From NCBI RefSeq assembly GCF_045037415.1, contig NZ_CP173438.1: a stretch of 64,000 bases of DNA. One strand, given 5' to 3'. Origin of the DNA: Escherichia coli (lineage in GTDB: Bacteria; Pseudomonadota; Gammaproteobacteria; Enterobacterales; Enterobacteriaceae). Both the position numbers and the translations under genes were made by a program. Below are positions 1 to 14,811 of the stretch, piece by piece (the stretch's first letter is position 1; each line of letters begins with the position of its first letter). The notes under the pieces are model-generated. The model did no database searches and was not told the origin of the DNA. It was given only the letters and a program-made list of their open reading frames with translations.

Positions 1-307
<307 letters not shown>

Positions 308-327
308 TTATAAAAATTGCTAAAATG

Positions 328-341
328 CTAAACCGGTTTAG
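328..341. promoter_or_regulatory. perfect 14-bp palindrome CTAAACCGGTTTAG; candidate LacI/GalR-type (ScrR) operator upstream of scrY
   Basis: Exact dyad symmetry with central CG, about 45 bp upstream of the scrY ATG; related copies at 387-400 and 1391-1420. Confidence 0.45.
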
Positions 342-386
342 GTGTTGATAATAAAGCTGACTTTTTAGCCAGAGCAATTATTTTCG

Positions 387-400
387 CTAAACCGATTTAG
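387..400. promoter_or_regulatory. near-palindrome CTAAACCGATTTAG; second candidate ScrR operator
   Basis: One-mismatch copy of the 328-341 palindrome in the scrK-scrY intergenic region. Confidence 0.4.
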
Positions 401-450
401 TAAATGTGACAGGCACGACAAATCGGGTTACAGATACAACAGCAGGATCA

Positions 451-1371
451 CTATTGTGAAGGGAGATCGTGTTGTCGGGGTAAGGCGGTCATCGCGCCTT
501 TAGCCGTGGTCGCCAGAGCACCACAAATCTGAGCTTGTGCAATGATTCGTTCAAGCTGTCTGGTATTTGTTGGTATTCCAGAATCAGCCAGACCGGCAAG
601 TAATCCAGCGACAAAAGCATCTCCTGCCCCGGTCGTATCGACGACAGAAACAGGTTTGGCGGGATAGTGGATAAACTGCCCCTGAAAATACACAAGTACG
701 CCATTTTTTCCTTGTGTAATAAGCAATAAAGTCAACGGATAACGTTGTACTAATGAATATGCGCCTTGCTGAACCTGGCTTTCGTCACTGATGAATAACA
801 ACTCTTCTTCGGACAATTTAGCGATATTCGCCAGCGAAAGCGCACGATCAAGGTATTTCCTTAACAGCGCTTCACTCTGCCAGAGATCGCTGCGGATATT
901 GGGATCAAAACTGATGTTTCCGCCAGCCTGACGTATTTTCTCCATAGCCAGAAATGCGGTACTTCGGGAAGGTTCTGCACTGAGCGCAATGGAACAAAGA
1001 TGGAGCCATTCACCCGGCCCAAATGCAGGAAGGTCATCAGGTTGTAAAAAAAGATCGGCACTTGGGCGTACCATAAAGGTAAAGTTTCTTTCTCCTTGCT
1101 CATCAAGTCCTACAGCCACAATTGAGGTGCGATGTTGAGGATCAAGAGACATATAACGTGTATCAACATTTTCTGTACTCAGTGTTTGATACATAAAGCG
1201 ACCGAAAGGATCATCGCCAACTTTGCCAATAAAGGCACTTTTCCCCCCCAGCCTTGCGATACCGACTGCAACATTAGCAGGCGCCCCACCAGGACACTGT
1301 AGTAGTCTCCCCTGGCTTTCGGGTAATAAATCAACAACCGCATCACCGAGTACCCATACTCTTGTGCTCAT
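451..1371 (-). CDS. scrK: fructokinase, PfkB/ribokinase family (ScrK-like)
   Basis: 306-aa ORF; PfkB signatures (GGAPANVAVG near N-terminus, DTTGAGDAFVAGLL near C-terminus); strong resemblance to enterobacterial ScrK over the whole length. Confidence 0.85.
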   Translation of the reverse strand: MSTRVWVLGDAVVDLLPESQGRLLQCPGGAPANVAVGIARLGGKSAFIGKVGDDPFGRFMYQTLSTENVDTRYMSLDPQHRTSIVAVGLDEQGERNFTFMVRPSADLFLQPDDLPAFGPGEWLHLCSIALSAEPSRSTAFLAMEKIRQAGGNISFDPNIRSDLWQSEALLRKYLDRALSLANIAKLSEEELLFISDESQVQQGAYSLVQRYPLTLLLITQGKNGVLVYFQGQFIHYPAKPVSVVDTTGAGDAFVAGLLAGLADSGIPTNTRQLERIIAQAQICGALATTAKGAMTALPRQHDLPSQ

Positions 1372-1390
1372 AAAGGCTCCAATATACTAA

Positions 1391-1420
1391 TTGCTAAACT
1401 AATTAAATCGGTTTAGCAAT
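1391..1420. promoter_or_regulatory. inverted repeat TTGCTAAAC-N12-GTTTAGCAA containing TAAATCGGTTTAG; candidate ScrR operator in scrK promoter region
   Basis: Dyad symmetry read from sequence, 20-50 bp upstream of the scrK ATG (1371, minus strand); shares the half-site of the 328-341 palindrome. Confidence 0.4.
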
Positions 1421-1535
1421 TAAAGCATAAACGCTGCTCAGGAGAGAACAATATTCAGCAGTGGTTACCCGGTATTTTGTAGTGGAAACGTGAATATGCC
1501 GGGATTAATCATCTACCCGGCACTGTTTATCTCAC

Positions 1536-3014
1536 TTACGCATTCGACCAGCTCTGGATCGAATCCGCATTCCCCAATTCCCCATGCATCACTTCATACG
1601 ATTTTTTCAGGATCACATCAGTATGTTTGGTTAGGTCTTTGAAAATGCCTTTATTCATCGCGTCGTAGCGTTTGGCATTGCTCTCAATCGGTATGAAGAT
1701 ATCTTTCACGCGAACCATTTTATCGACAGCCGTTGTGTAATCCGGGTATAGCCCCAGACCTACCGCCGTATTGATCGCAGCCCCCAGACTTGCACAACCG
1801 TTAATGGCGTTTCGGCGTGCCGGAAGGTTGAACACGTCGGCAAAAATCTGCATAAACAGATCGCTGTTCGAACCGCCGCCAGTAATGATCACATGCTTTG
1901 CAAAGTGATTCATTTCATGACACATATTGTCGTAATTATTCTTCAGCGTCAGCGCCACGCTTTCCAGTATCGAACGATATATCCATGCGTAATCCATGCT
2001 GGAATCAAAACCGATCATAATCCCGCGTTTGTACGGTTCCCACGGATTGGTCAGCCAGTCCAGCACCGTCATCAGACCATTACAGCCAGGCGGCACGCAA
2101 GACGCTTTTTTGTTGAGCAAATCTTCCGGTGAAAGATCCTGTGCTTTGGCATCCTGAATTAACGACTCGCCTAACATGTCGCGCAGCCAGCTCACCGTCC
2201 ACATGCCTTTGCGAATACCGTAACCTTCATACAGCAATGTTTGCGGAATAGAAGACATAATCGGCCAGTACGCCACCGGATCTTTCGGCAGTGCTTTGCC
2301 GTTCATCATCAACGCGATATAGGTGCCAAGAGAAATTACCGCCGTTTCATCATCCAGTAACCCGGCTCCCAGAGCTTCTACCGGTTTATCACTGGTGGTA
2401 CAAACAACCGGCAGCCCAGCCGGGAAATGTGTCGCCAGCGCAGCTTGTGGTGTGATATGCCCAAGAATGGTGCCCGGCATTTGCACGTCAAAAAGCATCT
2501 GGCGGGGGATATTAAACTTTTCCATTACCGTAGCATCTTCGCTCCATGCCCAGCTCTTATAATCCACCGGCCACTGACCAAAATAGTTGGCGATATTGTC
2601 TTTAAACTCGCCGGTTAAGCGATGTGTCAGATAACCCGAAAAAGAGGTGACATAGGCCACGTCAGGATTAGTGTGTTCGTAAGGGCGTGTAACGCGTGCA
2701 TCCTGCCAGCTAATCAACGGCGCGGCTGGCGTACCATCGGCTTTCAATAGCGCACGGCAGCAACGGATTGAGCCCAGGCCAATGCCGACAATATCTTCTT
2801 TATTCCCGGCAAACTGGCTCATCAAATCGTGACTGGCAAAACATAGTGATGCCCATAAATCATCGTCAGGATGTTCTGCGGTATCGGCATCTGGCGTGTG
2901 CATCGGCTGCAATAAGCCTTTGCCTTCGCAAACCACATTACCTTCCAGATCGTACATCACCACTTTTGTGCTCTGACTTCCGCCATCAATCCCTATGATG
3001 TATTTTTTCGACAT
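1536..3014 (-). CDS. ygcE: FGGY-family carbohydrate kinase
   Basis: 492-aa ORF; N-terminal GIDGGSQSTK sugar-kinase motif; length and sequence consistent with E. coli YgcE. Confidence 0.85.
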   Translation of the reverse strand: MSKKYIIGIDGGSQSTKVVMYDLEGNVVCEGKGLLQPMHTPDADTAEHPDDDLWASLCFASHDLMSQFAGNKEDIVGIGLGSIRCCRALLKADGTPAAPLISWQDARVTRPYEHTNPDVAYVTSFSGYLTHRLTGEFKDNIANYFGQWPVDYKSWAWSEDATVMEKFNIPRQMLFDVQMPGTILGHITPQAALATHFPAGLPVVCTTSDKPVEALGAGLLDDETAVISLGTYIALMMNGKALPKDPVAYWPIMSSIPQTLLYEGYGIRKGMWTVSWLRDMLGESLIQDAKAQDLSPEDLLNKKASCVPPGCNGLMTVLDWLTNPWEPYKRGIMIGFDSSMDYAWIYRSILESVALTLKNNYDNMCHEMNHFAKHVIITGGGSNSDLFMQIFADVFNLPARRNAINGCASLGAAINTAVGLGLYPDYTTAVDKMVRVKDIFIPIESNAKRYDAMNKGIFKDLTKHTDVILKKSYEVMHGELGNADSIQSWSNA

Positions 3015-3040
3015 GATTTTTCTCCTGTAATTTTCCTGGC

Positions 3041-4318
3041 TTACTTGCTGCTAGCCATTGCGGGGGCGCTATCAGCAGTACGAATTTTTTGGAACAGCAA
3101 AAAGGTAAAGATGATCACCATGCCAAGCGCCGCCATGCCCATTAGCCACATGTTGCGATAGGCTTCTGCAGCGGGCAGGGTGTCTTGCCAGTAGCCGATA
3201 ATCGGGTAAACGAAGACATCCGGCAGGAATCCAATCACCGAACAAATACCTACCGTGGTGCCCATAATGTAAGACGGTGTTCTCGCTTCGCCAGGGCAGG
3301 CCCAGTACAGCCCGCGTGAGGCGTAACAGGTGAATCCCAGTAATAAAATCAAGCCAATCCCCATCGCGACCGATTGCGGGTTAGAGTTCGTGACGAGCAG
3401 GGCTGTCAACGCCAGCAAACCGATGATGGAAAGGATTTGGACCACGCGGGTAGGGGATTTCACTTTACTGTAGGTGGTGATAATGCCGCCAAGTGGGCCG
3501 CACAGCGCGCGGAAGATTTTGTTGATCACAATCCCCATGTAGCTCGCCGCCACCAGCGACATGCCGTACATTTCGGTCAGATAGTTGGTGGAGTAACTCA
3601 GAATGGCGTAGATGGTGAAGACACCAAAAATCACCATGCTGCAATACCAGGTAGTGCTGATGCGCAAAACGGCCAGGATGTCGCTAAGCTGGAATGACTG
3701 TTTTTCTTCGTTATTGGCACTGCGTAGGTTGTTGTTATCGCTAACAAAAAACCAACACAAAATGCCCAGCAGAATGTAAACCACACTATAGATAATAATG
3801 ACCGTTTTCAGGCTGGCGCTGTCATCCGGTGCAAAGCGAGAAAAGACCCACATGGTAAACACCGCCAGCGACATTACACCGACGCCGCGCAGCCCTTCCA
3901 TCCAGCCCATAATTTTCCCTTGCTCGCTATGATCGCCCAGCAACGATGCGGCTTTAATCGACACCGACCACAGCATTAAAATCGTCGTTATCGCAAAGGC
4001 GACCTGAATACAGAGCATTACCCACAGCGGTGGATATGTTGCCATTAACAGACCCAGTAATCCGGTAATGATCATCGCGGAAGTAATCATTTTGCGATGT
4101 GAAAATTTATCGGCAATAACGCCGCTAGGGGCATAGAAAATAATGGCCGCAATACCAAAGGTACTCATTATTAAACCTATCTCGGTATTGCTGAATCCCA
4201 TAAATTTTGCCATGGGAATTTGATAAATATAACGTAAATAAGCCAGGTCGAAACTAACGCCGCCGCTAAAACTAATTATCGCGAGGGTTATCCAACGGCG
4301 ATATGAGTTGTGTTGCAT
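3041..4318 (-). CDS. yqcE: MFS transporter
   Basis: 425-aa ORF, about 12 hydrophobic segments; 26 bp upstream of ygcE, likely co-transcribed. Confidence 0.85.
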   Translation of the reverse strand: MQHNSYRRWITLAIISFSGGVSFDLAYLRYIYQIPMAKFMGFSNTEIGLIMSTFGIAAIIFYAPSGVIADKFSHRKMITSAMIITGLLGLLMATYPPLWVMLCIQVAFAITTILMLWSVSIKAASLLGDHSEQGKIMGWMEGLRGVGVMSLAVFTMWVFSRFAPDDSASLKTVIIIYSVVYILLGILCWFFVSDNNNLRSANNEEKQSFQLSDILAVLRISTTWYCSMVIFGVFTIYAILSYSTNYLTEMYGMSLVAASYMGIVINKIFRALCGPLGGIITTYSKVKSPTRVVQILSIIGLLALTALLVTNSNPQSVAMGIGLILLLGFTCYASRGLYWACPGEARTPSYIMGTTVGICSVIGFLPDVFVYPIIGYWQDTLPAAEAYRNMWLMGMAALGMVIIFTFLLFQKIRTADSAPAMASSK

Positions 4319-4496
4319 ATCGTATTCCCATTTGTAATAGACAAAAAAAAGAGAAAAGTAAGCCGCCCTTTCAGGTGGATTACTTTTCTCAGGTCTCTAG
4401 TAATTGCAATAAGAAATAACATGGAAAGCAGAGGTGTTGTGTGAGAGTAATCACGCTTCTGCTTTTTTAAATTATTTGACAATACGAACATCACAC

Positions 4497-4512
4497 TGTG
4501 ATTACGATCACA
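4497..4512. promoter_or_regulatory. CRP binding site, perfect consensus half-sites TGTGA-N6-TCACA
   Basis: TGTGATTACGATCACA read directly; lies in the divergent yqcE / ygcW promoter region, flanked by TTGACA (4476-4481) and TAAAAT (4535-4540). Confidence 0.5.
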
Positions 4513-4565
4513 TTAGCAGTTATGTCCTTATGCTAAAAATTATCTCCAGTTACCAGAGATAATGA

Positions 4566-4612
4566 GAAAGGTAACTTCCCTCTCGCGGGGGAAGTTACCT
4601 TTCTTTTTTTTT
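4566..4612 (+). terminator. intrinsic terminator / attenuator in the ygcW 5' leader
   Basis: 15-bp perfect stem GAAAGGTAACTTCCC / GGGAAGTTACCTTTC with 8-nt loop, followed by 9 consecutive T; ends 24 nt before the ygcW ATG; no plus-strand gene upstream. Confidence 0.6.
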
Positions 4613-4636
4613 GCCTTACGGAAATTGGAGCTAACT

Positions 4637-5422
4637 ATGTCAATCGAATCTCTCAATGCGTTCTCAATGGATTTTTTCTCCCTGAAAGGTAAAACAGCAA
4701 TTGTTACCGGCGGGAATAGCGGTTTAGGCCAGGCATTTGCCATGGCGTTGGCCAAAGCTGGCGCAAATGTCTTTATTCCTAGTTTCGTCAAAGATAACGG
4801 CGAAACAAAGGAAATGATTGAAAAACAGGGCGTTGAAGTTGATTTTATGCAGGTGGATATCACCGCAGAAGGCGCGCCGCAGAAGATTATCGCTGCCTGC
4901 TGTGAGCGCTTCGGTACCGTCGATATTCTGGTCAATAATGCCGGTATTTGTAAGCTGAATAAGGTGCTGGACTTTGGTCGTGCCGACTGGGACCCGATGA
5001 TTGACGTGAACCTGACCGCCGCATTCGAGTTAAGCTACGAAGCGGCAAAAATTATGATCCCGCAGAAAAGCGGTAAAATCATTAATATCTGTTCATTGTT
5101 CTCTTACTTAGGTGGTCAATGGTCACCTGCTTATTCTGCCACTAAACATGCTCTTGCCGGATTCACCAAAGCCTATTGCGATGAATTAGGCCAATATAAT
5201 ATTCAGGTGAATGGTATTGCTCCTGGTTATTATGCAACCGATATTACGCTGGCGACCCGTAGTAATCCAGAAACTAACCAGCGTGTTCTTGATCATATTC
5301 CGGCAAACCGTTGGGGTGATACTCAGGATTTAATGGGGGCAGCCGTATTCCTCGCAAGTCCGGCATCGAATTATGTCAACGGACATTTATTAGTGGTTGA
5401 TGGCGGTTATTTAGTGCGCTAA
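4637..5422 (+). CDS. ygcW: short-chain dehydrogenase/reductase (SDR), KduD-like
   Basis: 261 aa from the ATG at 4637; TGGNSGLG Rossmann motif; the upstream in-frame extension from 4562 overlaps the terminator hairpin and is rejected. Confidence 0.85.
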   Translation: MSIESLNAFSMDFFSLKGKTAIVTGGNSGLGQAFAMALAKAGANVFIPSFVKDNGETKEMIEKQGVEVDFMQVDITAEGAPQKIIAACCERFGTVDILVNNAGICKLNKVLDFGRADWDPMIDVNLTAAFELSYEAAKIMIPQKSGKIINICSLFSYLGGQWSPAYSATKHALAGFTKAYCDELGQYNIQVNGIAPGYYATDITLATRSNPETNQRVLDHIPANRWGDTQDLMGAAVFLASPASNYVNGHLLVVDGGYLVR

Positions 5423-5491
5423 TTCATAACGGTGGTTTCTGTTTTCTCTTATTAATAACTATTCCATTTTTATTATCAGGAAGGAATTATT

Positions 5492-6946
5492 ATGTCTTTA
5501 TCTCGCGTAGCGATTGTCGACCAGCTAAAGGAAATTGTTGGTGCAGATCGCGTTATTACCGATGAAACGGTATTAAAGAAAAACAGTATTGACCGTTTTC
5601 GTAAATTTCCGGATATTCATGGAATTTATACTTTGCCGATTCCGGCAGCGGTCGTAAAACTCGGTTCCACAGAACAAGTATCCCGTGTGCTGAATTTTAT
5701 GAATGCGCACAAAATTAACGGTGTGCCACGTACCGGTGCTTCCGCCACCGAAGGTGGACTGGAAACCGTTGTGGAAAACTCGGTGGTGCTCGACGGCTCC
5801 GCCATGAATCAAATCATTAATATTGATATTGAGAATATGCAGGCCACGGCGCAATGTGGCGTTCCGCTGGAGGTGCTGGAAAACGCATTGCGCGAAAAAG
5901 GTTACACCACGGGGCATTCTCCGCAGTCAAAGCCGCTGGCGCAGATGGGCGGCTTGGTGGCGACCCGCAGTATCGGGCAGTTCTCCACACTCTACGGCGC
6001 AATCGAAGATATGGTCGTTGGTCTGGAAGCGGTGCTGGCAGATGGCACCGTCACACGCATTAAAAAAGTGCCACGTCGCGCGGCTGGCCCGGACATTCGT
6101 CATATCATCATCGGCAACGAAGGTGCACTGTGCTATATCACTGAAGTCACAGTGAAAATCTTCAAATTTACGCCGGAAAACAATCTCTTCTACGGCTATA
6201 TCCTGGAAGATATGAAAACCGGCTTCAACATCCTGCGTGAAATCATGGTGGAAGGGTATCGTCCGTCGATTGCTCGTTTGTATGATGCTGAAGATGGCAC
6301 CCAACACTTCACCCATTTTGCCGACGGCAAATGCGTGCTGATCTTTATGGCTGAAGGTAACCCTCGCATTGCGAAGGCGACGGGTGAAGGGATTGCTGAA
6401 ATCGTGGCGCGCTACCCGCAGTGCCAGCGCGTGGACAGCAAGCTGATCGAAACCTGGTTTAACAACCTGAACTGGGGACCGGATAAAGTGGCTGCCGAAC
6501 GTGTGCAGATCCTCAAAACCGGCAACATGGGCTTTACCACTGAAGTGTCCGGCTGCTGGAGCTGCATTCACGAAATCTACGAAAGCGTTATTAACCGTAT
6601 TCGTACCGAGTTCCCGCACGCCGACGACATCACCATGCTGGGCGGTCACTCCTCTCATAGCTATCAGAACGGCACCAACATGTACTTCGTCTACGACTAC
6701 AACGTCGTTGACTGTAAGCCGGAAGAGGAAATCGACAAGTACCACAATCCGCTCAACAAAATCATCTGCGAAGAAACCATTCGCCTCGGCGGTTCGATGG
6801 TGCATCACCACGGTATCGGTAAACATCGCGTTCACTGGAGCAAACTGGAACACGGCAGCGCGTGGGCGTTGCTGGAAGGGCTGAAAAAGCAGTTCGATCC
6901 TAATGGCATTATGAACACGGGTACTATCTATCCGATTGAAAAATAA
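5492..6946 (+). CDS. ygcU: FAD-linked oxidase (GlcD / D-lactate dehydrogenase / alkyl-DHAP synthase family)
   Basis: 484-aa ORF with N-terminal FAD-binding PCMH-type domain pattern. Confidence 0.85.
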   Translation: MSLSRVAIVDQLKEIVGADRVITDETVLKKNSIDRFRKFPDIHGIYTLPIPAAVVKLGSTEQVSRVLNFMNAHKINGVPRTGASATEGGLETVVENSVVLDGSAMNQIINIDIENMQATAQCGVPLEVLENALREKGYTTGHSPQSKPLAQMGGLVATRSIGQFSTLYGAIEDMVVGLEAVLADGTVTRIKKVPRRAAGPDIRHIIIGNEGALCYITEVTVKIFKFTPENNLFYGYILEDMKTGFNILREIMVEGYRPSIARLYDAEDGTQHFTHFADGKCVLIFMAEGNPRIAKATGEGIAEIVARYPQCQRVDSKLIETWFNNLNWGPDKVAAERVQILKTGNMGFTTEVSGCWSCIHEIYESVINRIRTEFPHADDITMLGGHSSHSYQNGTNMYFVYDYNVVDCKPEEEIDKYHNPLNKIICEETIRLGGSMVHHHGIGKHRVHWSKLEHGSAWALLEGLKKQFDPNGIMNTGTIYPIEK

Positions 6947-7039
6947 TGTGTCAGGCAGCGTTCCGCGATGACGGTGCGTTGCCTTTTCGGCTTCTCAGGC
7001 GAGAAGCCGTTCTTATTACCGGACAATGAAGGGGTAAAG

Positions 7040-8377
7040 ATGAACACTTCACCGGTGCGAATGGATGATTTACCGCTTAACCGTTTTCACTGTCGAATTG
7101 CTGCGCTCACTTTCGGCGCACACCTGACCGACGGTTATGTTCTCGGCGTCATTGGTTATGCCATTATTCAGCTTACGCCCGCCATGCAACTGACGCCGTT
7201 TATGGCGGGAATGATCGGCGGCTCGGCGTTACTTGGTTTGTTTCTTGGCAGCCTGGTTTTGGGGTGGATCTCCGACCATATCGGGCGGCAAAAAATCTTC
7301 ACCTTCAGTTTTATGCTGATTACGCTCGCTTCGTTCTTGCAATTTTTTGCCACCACGCCAGAGCATCTTATTGGATTACGCATTTTGATCGGCATTGGTC
7401 TGGGAGGCGATTACTCAGTCGGTCACACCTTGCTGGCTGAATTTTCCCCGCGCCGCCATCGCGGTATTTTGCTGGGCGCATTCAGTGTGGTGTGGACCGT
7501 AGGCTATGTGCTGGCAAGTATTGCCGGACATCACTTTATTTCCGAAAGCCCGGAGGCCTGGCGCTGGCTGCTGGCATCAGCGGCGTTACCAGCCTTGCTG
7601 ATTACGCTGCTACGTTGGGGCACGCCGGAATCGCCACGCTGGCTACTGCGCCAGGGGCGTTTTGCAGAAGCTCACGCTATCGTTCATCGCTATTTTGGCC
7701 CGCATGTTTTACTGGGCGATGAAGTGGCAACGGCGACCCATAAACACATCAAAACCTTGTTCTCTTCGCGCTACTGGCGGCGCACAGCGTTTAACAGCGT
7801 CTTCTTTGTCTGCCTCGTAATCCCATGGTTTGTGATTTATACCTGGCTGCCAACTATCGCCCAGACTATTGGACTGGAAGATGCGCTGACTGCCAGTCTG
7901 ATGCTTAATGCGTTGTTAATTGTGGGCGCGCTGCTGGGATTAGTTCTGACGCACCTGCTGGCACATCGCAAGTTTTTGCTGGGAAGTTTTTTGCTGCTGG
8001 CGGCAACGCTGGTAGTGATGGCCTGTTTGCCTTCCGGCAGTTCATTAACGCTGCTGCTTTTTGTTCTCTTCAGCACCACCATTTCGGCAGTCAGTAATCT
8101 GGTGGGCATTTTGCCTGCGGAAAGTTTTCCTACTGACATTCGCTCGCTGGGCGTCGGTTTTGCCACCGCCATGAGTCGGTTGGGGGCGGCGGTAAGTACT
8201 GGCCTGCTGCCGTGGGTGCTGGCGCAGTGGGGAATGCAAGCCACCTTATTACTCCTGGCGGCAGTGTTGTTGGTTGGTTTTGTTGTGACCTGGCTATGGG
8301 CACCAGAAACCAAAGCACTCCCGCTGGTGGCGGCGGGAAATGTAGGAGGTGCGAATGAACATTCTGTTAGCGTTTAA
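7040..8377 (+). CDS. ygcS: MFS sugar-type transporter
   Basis: 445 aa from the ATG at 7040 (RBS GAAGGGG upstream); multiple transmembrane segments. Confidence 0.85.
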   Translation: MNTSPVRMDDLPLNRFHCRIAALTFGAHLTDGYVLGVIGYAIIQLTPAMQLTPFMAGMIGGSALLGLFLGSLVLGWISDHIGRQKIFTFSFMLITLASFLQFFATTPEHLIGLRILIGIGLGGDYSVGHTLLAEFSPRRHRGILLGAFSVVWTVGYVLASIAGHHFISESPEAWRWLLASAALPALLITLLRWGTPESPRWLLRQGRFAEAHAIVHRYFGPHVLLGDEVATATHKHIKTLFSSRYWRRTAFNSVFFVCLVIPWFVIYTWLPTIAQTIGLEDALTASLMLNALLIVGALLGLVLTHLLAHRKFLLGSFLLLAATLVVMACLPSGSSLTLLLFVLFSTTISAVSNLVGILPAESFPTDIRSLGVGFATAMSRLGAAVSTGLLPWVLAQWGMQATLLLLAAVLLVGFVVTWLWAPETKALPLVAAGNVGGANEHSVSV

Positions 8378-9134
8378 AGCCGAACCGGATGCCGGAATGC
8401 TGGCGGAAAAAGAGTGGCAGGCGGCGGCTCAGGGTAATAGCGGACCGGATGTTTCGCTTCTGCGAAGTTTACTCGGTGCTGATGAACAGGCCGCAGCTGC
8501 GCTGCTGTTGGCGCAGAGAAAAAACGGTACGCCGATGTCTTTAACCGCGTTGAGCATGGGGGATGAACGGGCGTTGCACTGGCTGCGCTATCTCATGGCT
8601 CTTGGGTTTGAGGAAGCTGTATTGCTGGAGACGGCGGCAGATCTGCGCTTTGCGCCGGAATTTGTCGCTCGCCATATTGCCGAATGGCAGCGTCAGAATC
8701 CGCTGGATCTGATAATTACCGGCTGCCAAAGCAGCGAAGGGCAGAATGGGCAAACGCCATTTTTGCTGGCGGAAATGCTGGTCTGGCCCTGCTTCACCCA
8801 GGTGGAGCGCTTTACTCTCGACGCACCGTTTATCACCCTCGAACAGCGTACTGAACATGGGGTGCGCTGTTGCCGGGTTCGCTTGCCTGCGGTGATTGCC
8901 GTGCGTCAGTGCGGTGAAGTGGCCTTGCCAGTTCCGGGAATGCGCCAGCGAATGGCTGCGGGGAAAGCAGCAATTATCCGTAAAACTGTTGCTGTCGAAT
9001 TGCCAGCGATGCAGTGTCTGCAACTGGCAAGAGCAGAGCAACGACGCGGAGCGACGCTGATTGGTGGGCAAACGGTAGCAGAAAAAGCGCAAAAGCTATG
9101 GCAGGACTATTTACGCCAAAGGATGCAGCCATGA
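8355..9134 (+). CDS. ygcR: electron transfer flavoprotein beta-subunit-like (FixA-like)
   Basis: 259 aa from the ATG at 8355, preceded by AGGAGG; stop overlaps the ygcQ start (ATGA). Confidence 0.85.
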   Translation: MNILLAFKAEPDAGMLAEKEWQAAAQGNSGPDVSLLRSLLGADEQAAAALLLAQRKNGTPMSLTALSMGDERALHWLRYLMALGFEEAVLLETAADLRFAPEFVARHIAEWQRQNPLDLIITGCQSSEGQNGQTPFLLAEMLVWPCFTQVERFTLDAPFITLEQRTEHGVRCCRVRLPAVIAVRQCGEVALPVPGMRQRMAAGKAAIIRKTVAVELPAMQCLQLARAEQRRGATLIGGQTVAEKAQKLWQDYLRQRMQP

Positions 9135-9991
9135 ATATCGTAATTGTGACAATAAATCAGGACCATGCCGCAATAGCGAGCTGGCTGGCGGCGCAGGATT
9201 TCAGCGGTTGTACCCTGGCACATTGGCAAATAGAACCACAGCCGATGGTTGCGGAACAGGTGCTGGATGCACTGGTGGAACAGTGGCAACGAACGCCTGC
9301 GGACGTTGTCCTTTTTCCTCCGGGCGCGTTTGGCGATGAACTGTCGACCCGGCTGGCCTGGCGTTTACATGGTGCAAGCATCTGCCAGGTGACTTCGTTA
9401 GATATTCCAACCGTAAGCGTGCGCAAATCCCACTGGGGAAATGCGTTGACGGCGACGCTGCAAACAGACAAACGCCCGCTATGCCTTTCGCTGGCACGTC
9501 AGGCGGGAGCAGATAAAAACGCCACGTTGCCCTCTGGGATGCAGCAACTGAACATTGTCCCAGGTGTGCTTCCCGACTGGCTGGTTAGCATAGAAAATCT
9601 GAAAAATGTTATCCGCGACCCATTAGCTGAAGCCAGACGGGTGCTGGTGGTGGGGCAGGGCGGAGAGGCAGATAACCAGGAAATCGCTATGCTGGCAGAA
9701 AAGATGGGAGCCGAAGTGGGCTACAGTCGGGCACGAGTGATGAACGGTGGCGTTGATGCCGAAAAAGTGATTGGTATTTCCGGACATCTGCTGGCACCTG
9801 AGGTGTGTATTGTTGTTGGCGCTTCCGGCGCAGCAGCGTTAATGGCGGGCGTACGCAATAGCAAGTTTGTGGTGGCGATTAATCATGACGCCAGTGCAGC
9901 GGTATTTTCACAGGCAGATGTTGGCGTAGTTGATGACTGGAAAGTGGTGCTGGAGGCACTGGTGACAAACATTCACGCAGATTGCCAATAA
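9131..9991 (+). CDS. ygcQ: electron transfer flavoprotein alpha-subunit-like (FixB-like)
   Basis: 286 aa from the ATG at 9131; translationally coupled to ygcR. Confidence 0.85.
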   Translation: MNIVIVTINQDHAAIASWLAAQDFSGCTLAHWQIEPQPMVAEQVLDALVEQWQRTPADVVLFPPGAFGDELSTRLAWRLHGASICQVTSLDIPTVSVRKSHWGNALTATLQTDKRPLCLSLARQAGADKNATLPSGMQQLNIVPGVLPDWLVSIENLKNVIRDPLAEARRVLVVGQGGEADNQEIAMLAEKMGAEVGYSRARVMNGGVDAEKVIGISGHLLAPEVCIVVGASGAAALMAGVRNSKFVVAINHDASAAVFSQADVGVVDDWKVVLEALVTNIHADCQ

Positions 9992-9994
9992 CGT

Positions 9995-10115
9995 GCTGCC
10001 GGATGATCCTGCCGATGGTTCTGGGCTGGGGACTTGTAGGCCTGATAAGACGCGTCAAGCGTCGCATCAGGCGCTGAATGTCGGATGTGGCGTGCAGCCT
10101 ACAAATCACACCAAA
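9995..10115. repeat. REP/BIME palindromic elements between convergent ygcQ and ygcP
   Basis: GCCGGATG and TAGGCCTGATAAGACGCG...CGCATCAGGC motifs typical of E. coli REP units. Confidence 0.7.
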
Positions 10116-10138
10116 TTCAACTTGTTACGATTATCCCG

Positions 10139-10714
10139 TCAAAGCAATTTTTTCGCTAACGTCCAGACCCCAGTATTCGTGGTGGAAAGCGCCACAACAC
10201 CCGCGTTAATCGCATTACGCGCATCTTCTTCATCGCACACCAGCCCGCCAGCAATCAGCGGTTGGCGGATTTTCTCCGTCACCCAGCCCAGCACTTTAGG
10301 CATGCAGCCTGGCAGGATCTCAATACAATCCGGATTCGATTGCGCAACTTGCTTATCAATGTTGTGAAACGAAATCGAATCAACAATAAACAGTCGATGA
10401 ATACAGAAAAAACCTTCCGCTCTTGCTGCTTTCAGCATTGAGGCTTTGGTACTGATAATTCCGTCCGCCTCGGTTACCAGTTTCAAAAACTGAATCACCA
10501 CTTCTTTATTTGACGCGCCTTCCAGCAAATCAACATGAATAAAAGCATATTTCCCGGCGTTCTTAATCTTTTTAACGATATTACTAATGGTGCAGATATT
10601 GCCGTACAACACGGAAATAAACTGGCATTCAGAGTCGATTGCCAGTTGCAGGCTGGCATTATCTTTAACGGCAGCAATCACCGGATTCTGGCGGAGCAGG
10701 TGTAAGAGGGGCAT
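10139..10714 (-). CDS. ygcP: GlpP-family glycerol-3-phosphate-responsive RNA antiterminator-like protein
   Basis: 191-aa ORF; family assignment by similarity to GlpP-type antiterminators. Confidence 0.8.
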   Translation of the reverse strand: MPLLHLLRQNPVIAAVKDNASLQLAIDSECQFISVLYGNICTISNIVKKIKNAGKYAFIHVDLLEGASNKEVVIQFLKLVTEADGIISTKASMLKAARAEGFFCIHRLFIVDSISFHNIDKQVAQSNPDCIEILPGCMPKVLGWVTEKIRQPLIAGGLVCDEEDARNAINAGVVALSTTNTGVWTLAKKLL

Positions 10715-10730
10715 AAATTATCCTTATTAT

Positions 10731-10991
10731 TTATCCAAAGCGGTAGGTGATGCCGAATCCGGAAGGCGGATAGCGCCACTGTTGTAGTGTTGATTCGTCG
10801 CACAGCAAACGGCAGGTGCCACACTCCAGGCAGCCGTGATAATCAACACGTAAGCCACCTTCAGGTGTGAGCGAAAAAAGACCTGCTGGACAGGCGTTAA
10901 TCAACCGTTGTGCCGTCTGGCGCTCAACGGAGTCAGTCGGAACAATGTGCGGCGCATCAGCAGCGCGCCAGAGATTACGGGCTACAGACAT
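10731..10991 (-). CDS. ygcO: ferredoxin-like protein (FixX-like)
   Basis: 86 aa from the internal ATG (MSVARN...); CLECGTC cysteine motif; overlaps the ygcN stop by 10 nt. Confidence 0.75.
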   Translation of the reverse strand: MSVARNLWRAADAPHIVPTDSVERQTAQRLINACPAGLFSLTPEGGLRVDYHGCLECGTCRLLCDESTLQQWRYPPSGFGITYRFG

Positions 10992-12253
10992 CGCAGACTC
11001 CTGATAACATCGCCCGTCAGATGCCACAGGCCGTGACGACGTAAATGACGCCAGAGCAACTGGCGCAGCGGTGGAACAGGTGTATTCCCCTGATCCCATA
11101 AATCACGGGAAATATCCTGCATTAACCCAGGCCACACCCGATACCAGCCAGGACGTTGCAAAAGCGCCGGAACATGCTGATAACGCTGTAGAACATCCCA
11201 CAGCAGGCTGCGCTCTACGTTGTGATGATAAAGCGGAAACAGATTTTGCGGCTCGCGGTGTTGGCAGGCGCTTATCAGCGTTTGTGCCGCCGCCTGCGCG
11301 CCAGTTAGCGCCATATCCATGCCGCGCACGGAAATTCCGGTATTGACGCAACTGCGCAACGCATCGCCCACCAGCAGCCAGCCGTTACCGGCGTATTGCA
11401 CCGGCATACTGCGCAGGCCACCTTCTGGCACCAGATGCGCACCATACTCCAGTAATTCCGTGTTTTTGATAAGCGGGCGCACTGCCGGATGCGTTTTAAA
11501 GCGAGTCAGCAGCTCGCTTGCCGGAACACTACTTTGCGTAAGGGAGGAGAGCGGGCAAACAATCCCTAACGAGAGCGTTTGTTGATTAGTATAAAGAAAT
11601 GCGCCGCCGGGTAAGTCATCACAGATCCCGCCGCTGAACAACAACGCTGCGCCTTCGTTATTCTCCAGATGAAAACGTTCTTCAATAGCGGATGGTTCCA
11701 GCGTCAGCACTTCTTTGATTCCCAATGCCATCGCTTCGCCAGCAGGACGAGTCACTAACCCGTGGCGTTCCGCCAGGACGCTGTTGGCACCTTCTGCCAG
11801 CACCACATAACGGGCGTGAAGAATATCGTCACCACAAATGACACCACACACCCTGCCGTTTTCTTCATACAGTGCATCTACCGTCGCACCGGGGATGCAT
11901 TCGACACCTTCTTTTTCGGCTTCGGCAACCAGCCACGGATCGAATCGTGCACGTAATACACTCCAGGATTCACCGCCGGGCTGTAAGCTGGAAAACGTCG
12001 TTGCGCCATCTGGCGTTAACAGAGAAAGACTTTCGTGAGTGATGCGTCGTTCAAGGGGCGCGGTCAGGTGAAATTGCGGGAGGAGTTCCGCGAGCGCATG
12101 GGTATATAAACGCCCGCCGGAAAGATTTTTGCTGCCGGGAATCTCCGCTCGTTCCAGTAACAAAACGGATAAACCCGCTCGCGCGCAGCGTAACGCGCAA
12201 GCGGTGCCAGCAATTCCGGCACCGATAATAATAATGTCGCAGTCGTCTTCCAT
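10982..12253 (-). CDS. ygcN: FAD-dependent oxidoreductase, ETF-quinone oxidoreductase-like (FixC-like)
   Basis: 423 aa from MEDDCDIIIIGAGIAGTACA (FAD-binding GxGxxG). Confidence 0.85.
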   Translation of the reverse strand: MEDDCDIIIIGAGIAGTACALRCARAGLSVLLLERAEIPGSKNLSGGRLYTHALAELLPQFHLTAPLERRITHESLSLLTPDGATTFSSLQPGGESWSVLRARFDPWLVAEAEKEGVECIPGATVDALYEENGRVCGVICGDDILHARYVVLAEGANSVLAERHGLVTRPAGEAMALGIKEVLTLEPSAIEERFHLENNEGAALLFSGGICDDLPGGAFLYTNQQTLSLGIVCPLSSLTQSSVPASELLTRFKTHPAVRPLIKNTELLEYGAHLVPEGGLRSMPVQYAGNGWLLVGDALRSCVNTGISVRGMDMALTGAQAAAQTLISACQHREPQNLFPLYHHNVERSLLWDVLQRYQHVPALLQRPGWYRVWPGLMQDISRDLWDQGNTPVPPLRQLLWRHLRRHGLWHLTGDVIRSLRCL

Positions 12254-12330
12254 GTCATGCCCCAGATATCCAGAACACAACACCCTAACATAGCGTTACT
12301 TAAGGGAAATTGACCGCCGACACACTCTTA

Positions 12331-12696
12331 TCATTCGCCGCGATAGATACAACCTGCGGTGCAGGTTTCTTTTACCATCACCGCACTTAACAGCGGCACA
12401 ACGGGTTTAACCTGATCCCAAATCCATTTTGCTAAAACTTCGCTGGTTGGGTTTTCCAGACCTGGAATATCATTGAGATAATGGTGATCGAGGCGCTCAT
12501 AAGTTGGTTTAAACGCCGCTTTCAGTTCAGCGAAATCGATAATCCAGCCCGTATGCGGATCGACTTCCCCGGTAATTTCCAGTCGCACCATAAAGGAATG
12601 CCCGTGCAGGCGACCACATTTATGCCCTTGTGGGACGTGCGGCAAGCGGTGAGCGGCTTCGAAGGTGAAATCTTTAAATAACGTGGTGGACATCAT
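12331..12696 (-). CDS. queD: 6-carboxy-5,6,7,8-tetrahydropterin synthase
   Basis: 121 aa from [18 protein letters not shown]...; HKCGRLHGH zinc-binding motif. Confidence 0.9.
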
Positions 12697-13011
12697 AATT
12701 TCTCTACATGACGATAAAACCGCCGTAGAGTACCGGAAAGGCTGTTTTTTCGCATTATCTAAAACGACTTTGTTGCGCAAAATCGCTGATTTATCTTATT
12801 GATGGGCAATATTCATTTGTTTTTCATTGGGTTGGTTAATCTATTTTGTTGTTAAAGACTATTGCTAAAACAGGTTAGTCGATTTGGTTATTAGTTATCG
12901 CTATCCCGTCTTTAATCCACACCGTTCACCCCGTTAACCTTACCTTCTCTTCTGTTTTATGGGCGCTGACAGGGCGCAGAAACAGCTTTGCTTACTGGAA
13001 CATAACGACGC

Positions 13012-14811
13012 ATGACGACACAGGTCCCACCTTCCGCGTTGCTTCCGTTGAACCCGGAGCAACTGGCACGCCTTCAGGCGGCCACGACCGATTTAACTCC
13101 TACCCAGCTTGCCTGGGTTTCTGGCTATTTCTGGGGCGTGCTCAACCAGCAGCCTGCTGCGCTTGCAGCGACGCCAGCGCCCGCCGCAGAAATGCCGGGT
13201 ATAACTATTATCTCCGCCTCGCAAACTGGCAATGCGCGTCGGGTTGCTGAAGCATTACGCGATGATTTATTAGCGGCAAAACTGAACGTTAAGCTGGTGA
13301 ACGCGGGCGACTATAAATTCAAACAAATCGCCAGCGAAAAACTGCTTATCGTGGTGACGTCAACGCAAGGGGAAGGGGAACCGCCGGAAGAAGCCGTCGC
13401 GCTGCATAAGTTCCTGTTCTCCAAAAAAGCGCCAAAGCTGGAAAACACCGCGTTTGCCGTGTTTAGCCTCGGCGATAGCTCTTATGAATTTTTCTGCCAG
13501 TCCGGGAAAGATTTTGACAGTAAGCTGGCGGAACTGGGCGGTGAACGCCTGCTCGACCGTGTCGATGCCGACGTTGAATACCAGGCTGCTGCCAGCGAGT
13601 GGCGCGCCCGCGTGGTTGATGCGCTTAAATCGCGTGCGCCTGTCGCGGCACCTTCGCAATCCGTCGCTACTGGCACGGTAAATGAAATCCACACCAGCCC
13701 GTATAGCAAAGACGCGCCGCTGGTGGCGAGCCTCTCTGTTAACCAGAAAATTACCGGGCGTAACTCTGAAAAAGACGTTCGTCACATTGAAATTGACTTA
13801 GGTGACTCTGACCTGCGTTACCAGCCGGGTGACGCGCTGGGCGTCTGGTATCAAAACGATCCGGCACTGGTGAAAGAACTTGTCGAACTGCTGTGGCTGA
13901 AAGGCGATGAACCTGTCACCGTCGAGGGCAAAACGTTGCCTCTGAACGAAGCGCTACAGTGGCACTTCGAACTGACCGTCAACACCGCCAACATTGTTGA
14001 GAACTATGCCACGCTTACCCGCAGCGAAACGCTGCTGCCGCTGGTGGGCGATAAAGCGAAGTTACAGCATTACGCCGCGACGACGCCGATTGTCGACATG
14101 GTGCGTTTCTCTCCGGCGCAACTGGATGCCGAAGCGCTGATTAATCTGCTGCGCCCACTGACCCCGCGCCTGTATTCCATCGCCTCCTCGCAGGCGGAAG
14201 TCGAGAACGAAGTGCACGTTACCGTTGGTGTGGTGCGTTACGACGTGGAAGGCCGCGCCCGTGCCGGTGGTGCCTCCAGCTTCCTCGCGGATCGTGTGGA
14301 AGAAGAGGGTGAAGTCCGCGTATTTATCGAACATAACGACAACTTCCGCCTGCCAACCAATCCGGAAACCCCGGTGATCATGATTGGCCCTGGCACCGGC
14401 ATCGCGCCGTTCCGTGCCTTTATGCAGCAGCGTGCCGCCGACGAAGCGCCGGGTAAAAACTGGCTATTCTTTGGCAACCCACACTTTACGGAAGATTTCC
14501 TCTACCAGGTGGAATGGCAGCGTTACGTCAAAGAAGGCGTGCTGACGCGCATCGATCTCGCCTGGTCGCGCGATCAAAAAGAAAAAATTTACGTACAAGA
14601 CAAACTGCGCGAACAGGGCGCAGAGCTGTGGCGCTGGATCAATGACGGTGCCCACATTTATGTCTGCGGCGACGCTAATCGCATGGCGAAAGACGTTGAG
14701 CAGGCACTTCTGGAAGTGATTGCCGAATTTGGTGGCATGGACACCGAAGCGGCGGATGAATTTTTAAGTGAGCTGCGCGTAGAGCGCCGTTATCAGCGAG
14801 ATGTCTACTAA
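13012..14811 (+). CDS. cysJ: sulfite reductase [NADPH] flavoprotein alpha subunit
   Basis: 599-aa ORF; flavodoxin plus FAD/NADPH-binding domains; gene order cysJ-cysI-cysH. Confidence 0.95.

Follow-up and report, generated by a model that had tools for sequence, protein, structure and literature searches.

The ygc cluster of Escherichia coli lies at positions 1536–12253 of a 64,000-nucleotide stretch of contig NZ_CP173438.1 (RefSeq assembly GCF_045037415.1), referred to here as the window, and comprises ten genes: yqcE–ygcE and ygcWUSRQ, which diverge from a 318-bp spacer, and ygcNOP, which converges on ygcQ. An earlier note, made from the sequence alone, had described these genes as a catabolic module coupled to electron transfer flavoprotein (ETF), with a substrate that appeared to be unassigned. 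Its gene positions agree with our open reading frame (ORF) calls and with the RefSeq annotation of the identical region, which gives the same gene set. The families it named (an FGGY kinase, two transporters of the major facilitator superfamily (MFS), a short-chain dehydrogenase/reductase (SDR), ETF beta and alpha subunits, FixC- and FixX-like proteins and a GlpP-like regulator) were recovered by NCBIfam, Pfam and PDB sequence searches. Positions 1–14000 of the window are E. coli chromosome: several complete genomes match this region at 100% identity, and 5047 of 5426 complete genomes contain at least 80% of it. Literature searches on the ygc gene names, on alkyl-dihydroxyacetone phosphate synthase (AGPS) with BCCT or FGGY, and on betaine-lipid catabolism turned up neither a functional study of the cluster nor a substrate assignment; the gene names appear only in tables from genomic SELEX (systematic evolution of ligands by exponential enrichment), in a listing of genes with differential expression and in a screen by ASKA overexpression. 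The analysis below leads us to regard the ygc cluster as a genuine, widely conserved orphan catabolic regulon.

Each of the two divergent operons begins with a leader element that appears to be a classical antiterminator/terminator switch. The element of ygcWUSRQ (4549–4612, plus strand) was identified by a terminator scan, a fold z-score of −6.3, a covariance-model match (65.7 bits, E 3e-13) and covariation. Its predicted antiterminator consists of a 5′ arm GTTACC (4549–4554), the loop AGAGAUAAUGAGAAA (4555–4569) and a 3′ arm GGTAAC (4570–4575), and its terminator of a perfect 19-bp hairpin (4564–4605) with a U9 run to 4612, which places the end of the element 24 nt 5′ of the ATG at 4637. The element of yqcE–ygcE (4343–4404, minus strand) was recovered by its fold z-score (−3.8), a regular-expression match, the covariance model (60.3 bits, E 8e-12) and covariation. 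Here a 5′ arm ATTACT (4404–4399), the purine-rich loop AGAGACCUGAGAAA and a 3′ arm AGTAAT (4384–4379) would form the antiterminator; the terminator hairpin (4390–4351) runs into a U8 stretch (4350–4343) that ends 25 nt 5′ of the ATG at 4318. The two elements have GAGAAA(A/G)GUAA...UUAC(U/C)UUUCU in common, and a second conserved arm, RTTACY, is complementary to RGTAAY in the 5′ strand of the terminator and encloses the purine-rich loop AGAG-N4-5-GAGAAA.

Loci for comparison came from a scan of one genome per species, which gave 80 loci with ygcU homologues in Enterobacterales, Desulfobacterota, SAR324, Bacillota and Actinomycetota; in all, the comparison took in 83 loci, and at least five phyla are represented. 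A pattern scan over all loci found 98 copies of the element in Enterobacterales, Bacilli, Clostridia and Syntrophomonadaceae, always just 5′ of ygcW, yqcE, ygcU, BCCT-transporter or MttB genes. The covariance model, built from 54 copies, added others in Sporomusa, Virgibacillus, Prauserella and Saccharopolyspora, bringing the range of the element to Actinomycetota, Bacillota and enterics, and returned only the two leader copies in the 64-kb window. Compensatory changes occur in 7 of the 16 pairs of the terminator helix. In the antiterminator helix 28 double-sided changes were counted, compared with 12 ± 2.4 in column shuffles (none of 500 shuffles reached the observed value), and pairing is at 86%, compared with 17–60% when the partner columns are slid; GUUACC/GGUAAC, AUUACU/AGUAAU, GUCGC/GCGAC and CUACC/GGUAG are examples of the covarying arms. 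No Rfam family matches the leader elements, the only returns being a sub-threshold naRNA4 match and one spurious snoRNA match, and no such element was found 5′ of ygcN (fold z-score −0.7, no covariance-model match).

The candidate partner of these elements is encoded by ygcP (10139–10714, minus strand), the last gene of ygcNOP, whose 191-aa product is a GlpP-family protein and putative RNA-binding antiterminator. It matches the Pfam domain G3P_antiterm (PF04309) over the whole of that domain (positions 1–173 of 173, E 1.6e-62) and PDB entry 3kts (E 1.2e-27), and with a matching candidate RNA target in both leaders its identification as a GlpP-like regulator stands. Element and ygcP also travel together: among 81 loci both are present in 50, ygcP only in 2, the element only in 5 and neither in 24 (Fisher p 1.4e-13), and several of the exceptions are artefacts of the ORF filter or of contig ends. 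A full regulator domain, a leader terminator with an overlapping alternative structure and co-occurrence of regulator and element are those features of a GlpP-type system that can be recognised in silico, and all are present. We infer that YgcP binds the leader RNA and controls both divergent operons.

The system that this most resembles is the glp regulon of Bacillus subtilis (glpD, glpFK and glpTQ leaders). The glpD 5′ untranslated region has been shown by experiment to be dependent on GlpP and on glycerol 3-phosphate (G3P) (PMC9604022). In our folding it takes the form GGUC-CUGAGAUGAGGAGA-GACC running into a terminator, the same layout as in the ygc leaders. Both regulons have a G3P_antiterm regulator, a promoter followed at once by an intrinsic terminator, and, upstream, a short stem with a purine-rich GAGA loop that overlaps the terminator at its 5′ strand; in both a transporter, an FGGY kinase and a flavoprotein are regulated, with catabolite control through CcpA in B. 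subtilis and presumably through CRP sites here. They differ in their stems (GUUAC/GUAAC and GAGAAAAGUAAC in ygc, GGUC/GACC and GAGAGACC in glp), in that the ygc genes have an SDR and an AGPS-like flavoenzyme with ETF in place of GlpD, and in the effector, which in the ygc system is presumably an analogue of G3P rather than G3P itself. No description of GlpP-type antitermination in Proteobacteria was found in the literature searched.

The spacer between ygcW and yqcE holds, in addition, two CRP-type sites. Site 1 (4440–4455, TGTGAGAGTAATCACG) shows half-site conservation in enterics; site 2 (4497–4512, TGTGATTACGATCACA) has perfect consensus half-sites and is the sole perfect TGTGA-N6-TCACA in the window, where 0.03 would be expected. 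Both pairs of half-sites are kept over more than 30 enteric species, while their spacers vary. Each site is centred ~44 nt from its RNA element, and a class II promoter would therefore start transcription 2–3 nt before the element; relative to starts so inferred, the centres of sites 1 and 2 lie ~41.5 nt upstream of the yqcE and ygcW transcription starts, respectively. RpoD promoters and an H-NS site have been reported in this spacer by genomic SELEX (PMC3946193). A lack of co-regulation had been named in the earlier note as grounds for abandoning the idea of one module. Instead, the kinase/transporter operon and the SDR–flavoenzyme–ETF operon each have a copy of the leader RNA and a CRP-type site, and a single regulon controlled by CRP and YgcP is probable. 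The spacer contains a further hairpin (window 4428–4468, plus strand; GCAGAGG...CCTCTGC-like, followed by six T), which encloses CRP site 1 and is kept in Escherichia and Citrobacter; it might insulate the two promoters or modulate the binding of CRP or H-NS.

Which genes make up the conserved unit was read from the loci of other species. ORFs were called in each locus and matched to the E. coli proteins, and the remainder were clustered; the ORF filter missed ygcW and ygcP in high-GC actinomycete loci, and BLAST-based calls replaced it there. Counts refer to the well-flanked set, that is, the 58 loci in which ygcU has 5 kb or more on either side. A YgcW homologue (63–86% identity) is present in 55 of these by the ORF filter and in all 58 by BLAST, and its gene adjoins ygcU in every locus, across phyla. 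YgcE homologues occur in 57 (42–59% identity outside close relatives) and YgcP homologues in 48–51. The transporter gene yqcE is found in 36 of 36 well-flanked enteric loci, and homologues of 27–32% identity in a few loci of Bacillota and Actinomycetota. The ETF pair (25–38% identity to YgcRQ) is present in 42 of the 58, nearly always directly after ygcU, and FixC/FixX in 28, all of them Enterobacterales that also carry ETF. In the other 16 loci, eight of them enteric, ETF is missing and ygcW, ygcU and ygcE are kept; they include Halobacillus, Virgibacillus, Thalassobacillus, Saccharopolyspora, SAR324, Erwinia, Pantoea and Serratia proteamaculans.

The same division appears in the ratio of nonsynonymous to synonymous substitution rates (dN/dS) among Escherichia, Citrobacter and Klebsiella, which is 0.01–0.06 for ygcE, yqcE, ygcW, ygcU, ygcS and ygcP and 0.08–0.24, or 4–10 times the core value, for ygcR (0.09–0.24), ygcQ (0.11–0.20), ygcO and ygcN. 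For example, YgcU is 94% identical between E. coli and Klebsiella, and YgcQ only 57%. Because of the locus counts and this split in dN/dS, we take ygcW, ygcU and ygcE, with ygcP, as the evolutionary unit; it is highly probable that these four form the core of the module and that ETF is accessory to it. The electron-transfer genes are a facultative, weakly constrained add-on. The implication for the proposed ETF-coupled module is a divided one. A partnership of YgcU with ETF remains plausible from the position of the ETF genes in most loci, but loci without ETF, the restriction of FixCX to Enterobacterales and the weak constraint argue against coupling as the defining feature, and the gene-neighbourhood comparison that had been proposed finds the constant part in W, U and E, usually with P. 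Likewise, ETF genes directly after ygcU, as described for this cluster, are the rule in most other loci but not in E. coli, where ygcS lies between.

Several loci carry genes that have no place in the E. coli cluster. In loci of Erwinia/Serratia (L029, L040, L041, L043 and L044) and SAR324 (L045), all without ETF, two other genes adjoin the transporter gene, one for a protein like formaldehyde-activating enzyme (Fae; 167 aa) and one for an aldo-keto reductase resembling L-glyceraldehyde-3-phosphate/methylglyoxal reductase; the two could form a different accessory module and might hint that the product is an aldehyde. In Clostridia/Bacillota (L055, L056, L057, L062, L080 and L082) and Desulfobacterota (L046–L054) the ETF pair is followed by a second, GlcD-type flavoenzyme (~480–510 aa, with an EHG motif), and in Clostridia this is sometimes followed by a second ETF pair; neither has an E. 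coli counterpart. Two loci from metagenome-assembled genomes (MAGs), L006 (JADFMM010000147.1, labelled Planctomycetota) and L016 (labelled Proteobacteria), have ygcU 99% and 92% identical to that of E. coli and the enteric gene order, and are probably enteric contamination or mis-binning.

The electron-transfer proteins of E. coli are themselves divergent. YgcR (ygcR, 8355–9134, plus strand; 259 aa) is a divergent ETF beta subunit by NCBIfam (E 1e-10) and by PDB 1efp_B (E 1.6e-10). YgcQ (ygcQ, 9131–9991, plus strand; 286 aa) is a divergent and short ETF alpha subunit, of which residues 63–275, the C-terminal FAD domain, can be aligned with human ETF alpha (E 1e-22), the SRA..V and VG.SG segments among them; homologues elsewhere have a median of ~320 aa, which leaves YgcQ ~35 residues shorter. 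The NCBIfam ETF scores of both are far under the cut-offs, and by total score, as distinct from a comparison of motifs, YgcQ reaches 84 bits with canonical ETF against 79 with the bifurcating LctC and 56 with CarE. The start of ygcR overlaps the end of ygcS and has the ribosome-binding site AGGAGG, and the ATGA overlap of ygcR and ygcQ, a pair that had been described as translationally coupled, is present. Between the convergent ygcQ and ygcP lies a palindromic element of REP/BIME type (window 10039–10122, GCCTGATAAGACGCGTCAAGCGTCGCATCAGGC...), which scores 39.3 bits against Rfam naRNA4, below the gathering score of 59.5.

On the opposite strand, ygcO (10731–10991, minus strand) encodes an 86-aa FixX-like ferredoxin (NCBIfam FixX, E 1e-23) with an intact cysteine motif, CPAG...CLECGTCRLLC (CPAG...C-x2-C-x2-C-x3-C), and ygcN (10982–12253, minus strand) a 423-aa FixC-like FAD-dependent oxidoreductase of the ETF-quinone oxidoreductase type, with 384.7 bits to PRK10015 and 365.7 to FixC (cut-off 610), both under cut-off. 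ygcN is confined to enteric loci with ETF. The set of a FixC-like flavoprotein, a FixX-like ferredoxin with its cysteine ligands and ETF is present in E. coli, and its members co-occur in 28 enteric loci. In these four parts (ETF beta, ETF alpha, FixC-type flavoprotein, FixX-type ferredoxin) it is like FixABCX (cai-linked) and YdiQRST of E. coli, of which it is a divergent paralogue; in contrast to them, the ygc genes are split over two convergent operons, have NCBIfam scores that are all under cut-offs, and have as partner a flavoenzyme of the vanillyl alcohol oxidase (VAO) type instead of an acyl-CoA dehydrogenase. A second parallel is with LctBCD of Acetobacterium woodii and with D-2-hydroxyglutarate dehydrogenase with ETF and ETF-quinone oxidoreductase, where a flavoenzyme of the VAO/GlcD superfamily is encoded beside a dedicated ETF pair, to which it presumably donates electrons, with an ETF-oxidising partner downstream. 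The ygc cluster differs from these systems in that neither the EH motif of the GlcD type nor the second histidine for metal binding is present in YgcU, YgcQ lacks a ferredoxin domain, and many loci orthologous to ygc have no ETF.

The central enzyme is YgcU (ygcU, 5492–6946, plus strand; 484 aa), an FAD-linked flavoenzyme that had been classed with the GlcD/LdhD oxidases. A 99%-identical representative carries the domain pair FAD_binding_4 (PF01565) and FAD-oxidase_C (PF02913), in keeping with this class, and the protein is 71–73% identical in Sporomusa, Alkalihalobacillus, Desulfobacula and Photobacterium (64–85% over five phyla). Against the GlcD equivalogs YgcU scores 144.5 bits (TIGR00387, cut-off 567.9) and 65.7 bits (PRK11230, cut-off 897), and in place of the motifs GH..G(D/G)GN.H and EHG.G it has GGHSSHSY.NGTNMY and VHHHGIGK; GHVGGNHLH and TEHGVGK are found in the GlcD-like neighbour (cluster c12) of other phyla. 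By motif position, as opposed to structure, the second histidine of GlcD is Tyr398 in YgcU and the glutamate is His439. The nearest solved relatives by sequence are instead mammalian and Dictyostelium AGPS, with an E of 2e-40 for the single sequence and 9e-57 for the family profile at an overall identity of 26–27%; the same profile gives 2e-36 with glycolate oxidase and 2e-26 with LctD. In Foldseek searches AGPS again came first (1.5e-27), followed by D-lactate dehydrogenases (about 1e-24). The AlphaFold model used, from a 14-sequence alignment, has a predicted local distance difference test score (pLDDT) of 68, and below 50 in the active-site loops, and served for coarse ranking of folds only.

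A HMMER alignment to 4bby pairs residues 26–474 of YgcU with 182–652 of AGPS (guinea-pig numbering), and in it R419, T568, Y578 and HHH615-617 of AGPS become R262, S388, Y398 and H438-440 of YgcU; all of these YgcU residues are invariant in 14 family sequences from several phyla. In AGPS the arginine and tyrosine are catalytic, the tyrosine taking the C1 proton of the dihydroxyacetone phosphate (DHAP) moiety; the carbanion adds to flavin N5, the C1 substituent departs and a nucleophile adds (PMC3509576). As the alignment begins at AGPS residue 182, the N-terminal gating domain of ~180 residues is absent from YgcU, a domain that has been described as specific to AGPS (PMC3509576). Because this lipid-gating domain is absent, we use the label AGPS-like: YgcU is an AGPS-like soluble flavoenzyme and not AGPS itself. 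In both sequence and fold AGPS is the closest match to YgcU, and the VAO-type FAD domain and the aligned Arg, Tyr and HHH loop are common to both. AGPS is a peroxisomal ether-lipid enzyme, whereas YgcU belongs to a catabolic operon alongside a kinase, an SDR and ETF, and may do net redox chemistry. The likeness suggests a substrate with a DHAP-like phosphorylated C3 unit, though it does not by itself prove AGPS chemistry, and would open the way to non-dehydrogenase chemistry at C1 of such a substrate. Truncated YgcU variants are present among E. coli records.

The kinase and SDR would supply such a substrate. YgcE (ygcE, 1536–3014, minus strand; 492 aa), an FGGY-family kinase by ORF call, RefSeq and NCBIfam and the second gene of the yqcE–ygcE operon, reaches the cut-off of none of the NCBIfam equivalogs XylB, LsrK, GntK, GlpK, AraB, FucK and RhaB (the best is XylB, 142 bits against a cut-off of 380); it falls in the glycerol/pentulose kinase family, and among solved structures AI-2 kinase and glycerol kinases are closest to it. 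YgcW (ygcW, 4637–5422, plus strand; 261 aa) is an SDR oxidoreductase like KduD and gluconate 5-dehydrogenase, near KduD but under both cut-offs (PRK06935, 349.9 bits against 369; TIGR01832, 276 against 338.9). KduD and gluconate 5-dehydrogenase oxidise the carbon beside a terminal CH2OH to give terminal 1-hydroxy-2-ketones, and FGGY kinases phosphorylate a terminal CH2OH. The kinase may also have a history of its own: YgcE of the E. coli type is 54–59% identical to kinases of Bacillota and 42–49% to those of Serratia, Erwinia and Rahnella (loci L028–L044), unlike YgcU and YgcW, which track the expected phylogeny, and this pattern suggests replacement or transfer of the kinase within Enterobacterales.

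Both transporters of the E. coli cluster are MFS proteins by NCBIfam. YqcE (yqcE, 3041–4318, minus strand; 425 aa) has weak similarity to the anion:cation symporter (ACS) family, and YgcS (ygcS, 6968–8377, plus strand; 469 aa from the RefSeq start) matches aromatic-acid:H+ symporter, sugar porter and organic cation transporter (TIGR00898, 135.8 bits) models. An in-frame ATG at 7040 (MNTSPV...) offers a second start for ygcS, 24 residues inside the RefSeq start at 6968.

Clues to the substrate come from outside the enterics. The leader element precedes genes for BCCT-family transporters in Bacillota (L002, L057, L060 and L062) and a gene for an MttB-family methyltransferase (L070), which are therefore members of the regulon and not chance neighbours. 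BCCT carriers are found in 11 of 16 well-flanked Bacillota loci and also in SAR324, ABC systems of the OpuC/OsmF type in Syntrophomonadaceae and Virgibacillus, and MttB with corrinoid and pterin-binding proteins in Desulfobacula. These families (BCCT, OpuC/OsmF and MttB) handle quaternary-ammonium or related osmolytes. They are not what would be expected for a plain polyol or acid sugar, the kind of substrate first suggested for the cluster. The carriers of E. coli are MFS proteins, but one of them, YgcS, has a substantial match to organic cation transporters (135.8 bits). Three MAGs of Syntrophomonadaceae/Bacillota (L066, L067 and L070) have a divergent operon with genes for MttB, a PanB-like protein, a member of the proline-racemase family and an ABC transporter of the OpuC type, and in L070 this MttB operon lies under the same leader element (13969–14021, minus strand).

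Two specific compounds were considered. What spoke for 2,3-dihydroxypropane-1-sulfonate (DHPS) was that sulfite should leave readily, that sulfate reducers carry the locus and that cysJIH is adjacent. It is not favoured, as the adjacency to cysJIH is limited to loci of the Escherichia/Citrobacter/Klebsiella type and, elsewhere, the transporters under common control belong to cationic or zwitterionic types. Glycerophosphocholine is chemically possible and was set aside since E. coli has the hydrolases GlpQ and UgpQ.

Our best model, which we put just short of probable, is a regulon for a small polar compound with a glycerol-like terminal diol, degraded by way of a C1-substituted DHAP analogue that YgcU processes. 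The compound would be taken up by YqcE and/or YgcS, or by BCCT or OpuC-type carriers in other phyla. YgcW would oxidise the secondary alcohol beside the terminal CH2OH and YgcE phosphorylate that CH2OH, in either order, converting R-CHOH-CH2OH to R-CO-CH2-O-P; with R as X-CH2-, the product would be a C1-substituted DHAP, as expected from the family chemistry of the two enzymes. That the intermediate is DHAP- or G3P-like is the somewhat favoured view. At C1, YgcU would then bring about enolisation, formation of a flavin-N5 adduct and loss of X, to leave DHAP or a 2-oxoaldehyde phosphate; AGPS-type cleavage of this kind is possible, if on balance doubtful, and that X is a quaternary-amine-type group is more doubtful still. 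Two fates of the iminium can be envisaged. Addition of water would give DHAP in a redox-neutral reaction, which fits the loci without ETF; collapse to an oxo-aldehyde and reduced flavin, for which nitroalkane oxidase is a precedent (PMC3509576), would depend on downstream ETF and FixCX or on a downstream aldo-keto reductase. Where reduced flavin is formed, YgcRQ (ETF) and YgcNO (a FixCX-type ETF-quinone oxidoreductase) would link it to the quinone pool. YgcP would sense a phosphorylated intermediate, bind the purine-rich antiterminator loop in both leaders and suppress the terminators before ygcW and yqcE, with the two CRP sites adding catabolite control. We infer every chemical step, the identity of X, the RNA binding of YgcP and the direction of electron flow.

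A number of points weigh against this model, all of whose pathway steps rest on sequence analysis. AGPS chemistry is redox-neutral, and the position of ETF directly after ygcU in ~70% of loci is a better fit to a true dehydrogenase; the conserved Tyr, His and Arg of YgcU could serve alcohol oxidation, and their equivalence to AGPS residues is drawn from HMMER alignments and from an AlphaFold model of poor quality (pLDDT 68). The E. coli carriers are MFS and not BCCT proteins, so that the quaternary-amine clue may transfer poorly or not at all, and we know of no growth of E. coli on any candidate compound. The reported binding of H-NS to the spacer could mean that the operons are silent in the laboratory. 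Lastly, the ETF/FixCX genes may be decaying in Escherichia.

The strongest alternative, which is possible although we consider it unlikely, sharpens the reading of the earlier note: YgcU would be an ETF-dependent dehydrogenase, an analogue of GlpD that oxidises a phosphorylated C3/C4 polyol or hydroxy acid from YgcE, with an obligatory electron path from YgcRQ through YgcNO to quinone and YgcW left for a second hydroxyl. The ETF beta and alpha genes directly 3′ of ygcU homologues in 42 of 58 loci, as in LctBCD, speak for it, as do LctD and LctC among the solved relatives, the complete set of FixC, FixX and ETF in E. coli, and the layout of transporter, FGGY kinase, flavoprotein dehydrogenase and GlpP, which parallels the B. 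subtilis glp regulon. An obligatory path is nevertheless hard to square with the 16 of 58 loci that have W, U and E without ETF and with relaxed constraint on the ETF/FixCX genes; YgcU reaches 144 bits against a GlcD cut-off of 568 and has the AGPS-type Tyr398 and HHH loop at the positions of the H...H and EH motifs of GlcD/LDHD, and a C3 skeleton offers one secondary alcohol to two oxidoreductases.

Decay in Escherichia can also be read as a reading of its own, one that would not exclude the others: the cluster would be cryptic or partly decayed there, its core kept for a rare substrate, ETF/FixCX no longer required and H-NS silencing in force. The elevated dN/dS of ygcR, ygcQ, ygcO and ygcN, a YgcQ that is short and far from its Klebsiella counterpart, the reported H-NS binding in the spacer and the truncated YgcU variants are consistent with it. 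We nonetheless regard it as improbable, since the ETF/FixCX genes retain a dN/dS well below 1, the reading frames, overlaps, ribosome-binding site and FixX cysteine motif are all intact, more than 90% of complete E. coli genomes keep the cluster, and conservation of the leader elements and CRP sites is strict. Most improbable is a reductive flow of electrons as proposed for FixABCX with carnitine, in which YgcNO and YgcRQ would feed quinol- or NADH-derived electrons to YgcU for an anaerobic reductive cleavage of C1-X (freeing an amine or sulfite, for example, and leaving an acetol-phosphate-type product): YgcN and YgcO are nearest to FixC, FixX and the YdiS-type paralogue, FixC/FixX-type paralogues in E. 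coli adjoin reductive pathways, ETF-bearing loci are concentrated in anaerobes (Desulfobacterota, Clostridia, Syntrophomonadaceae) and quaternary-amine transporters are a feature in common with the cai system, but nothing at the locus points to a low-potential donor, YgcQ and YgcR are marginally nearest canonical non-bifurcating ETFs, an ATP-consuming kinase suggests carbon assimilation over an electron sink, and the core is kept without ETF in aerobes.

The model of a C1-substituted DHAP analogue can be carried one step further, to a form that we consider fairly unlikely. YgcW, YgcE and YgcU would make up a hitherto unrecognised multi-phylum pathway that runs the head-group steps of ether-lipid synthesis backwards, stripping a C1-linked group from a glycerol derivative to yield DHAP; the order of steps could be kinase, 2-dehydrogenase and AGPS-type flavoenzyme. 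Linkage to BCCT, OpuC and MttB points to a quaternary-ammonium glycerol conjugate, which could be a deacylated betaine lipid, a glycerophosphocholine-like compound or 3-(trimethylammonio)propane-1,2-diol.

In this strain an island with a sucrose PTS (phosphotransferase system), hydrolase, porin and LacI, and a gene for a kinase resembling aminoimidazole riboside kinase and fructokinase, lie between queE and ygcE (window 451–1371 and upstream; locus L001, 1–7400); queD and cysJIH form the other flank.

New here are the three-enzyme core, the AGPS-like nature of YgcU, a conserved antitermination switch with CRP sites and the link to quaternary-amine transport outside the enterics. For ten E. coli genes without known function, carried by more than 90% of complete genomes, the problem is narrowed to three strictly conserved enzymes and a likely class of intermediate, a C1-substituted analogue of DHAP or G3P, and a reporter fused to the leader, with antitermination by YgcP as its read-out, would offer a means of searching compound libraries for the inducer. 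If the reversed head-group pathway is correct, YgcU would have the first catabolic role for an AGPS-like enzyme, and, should it cleave bonds by covalent flavin chemistry of the AGPS type, would represent a new enzymatic use of a rare mechanism. With YgcP and its RNA switch, GlpP-type antitermination would be known for the first time in Proteobacteria, and E. coli would have its second case, after BglG, of protein-mediated catabolic antitermination. The same enzymes, 65–85% identical, are found in sulfate reducers, clostridia, halophilic bacilli and actinomycetes, so that assignment of the substrate would annotate thousands of genomes, and it may bring to light a new way in which osmolytes of the quaternary-amine type or the head groups of lipids are turned over in gut and marine systems.

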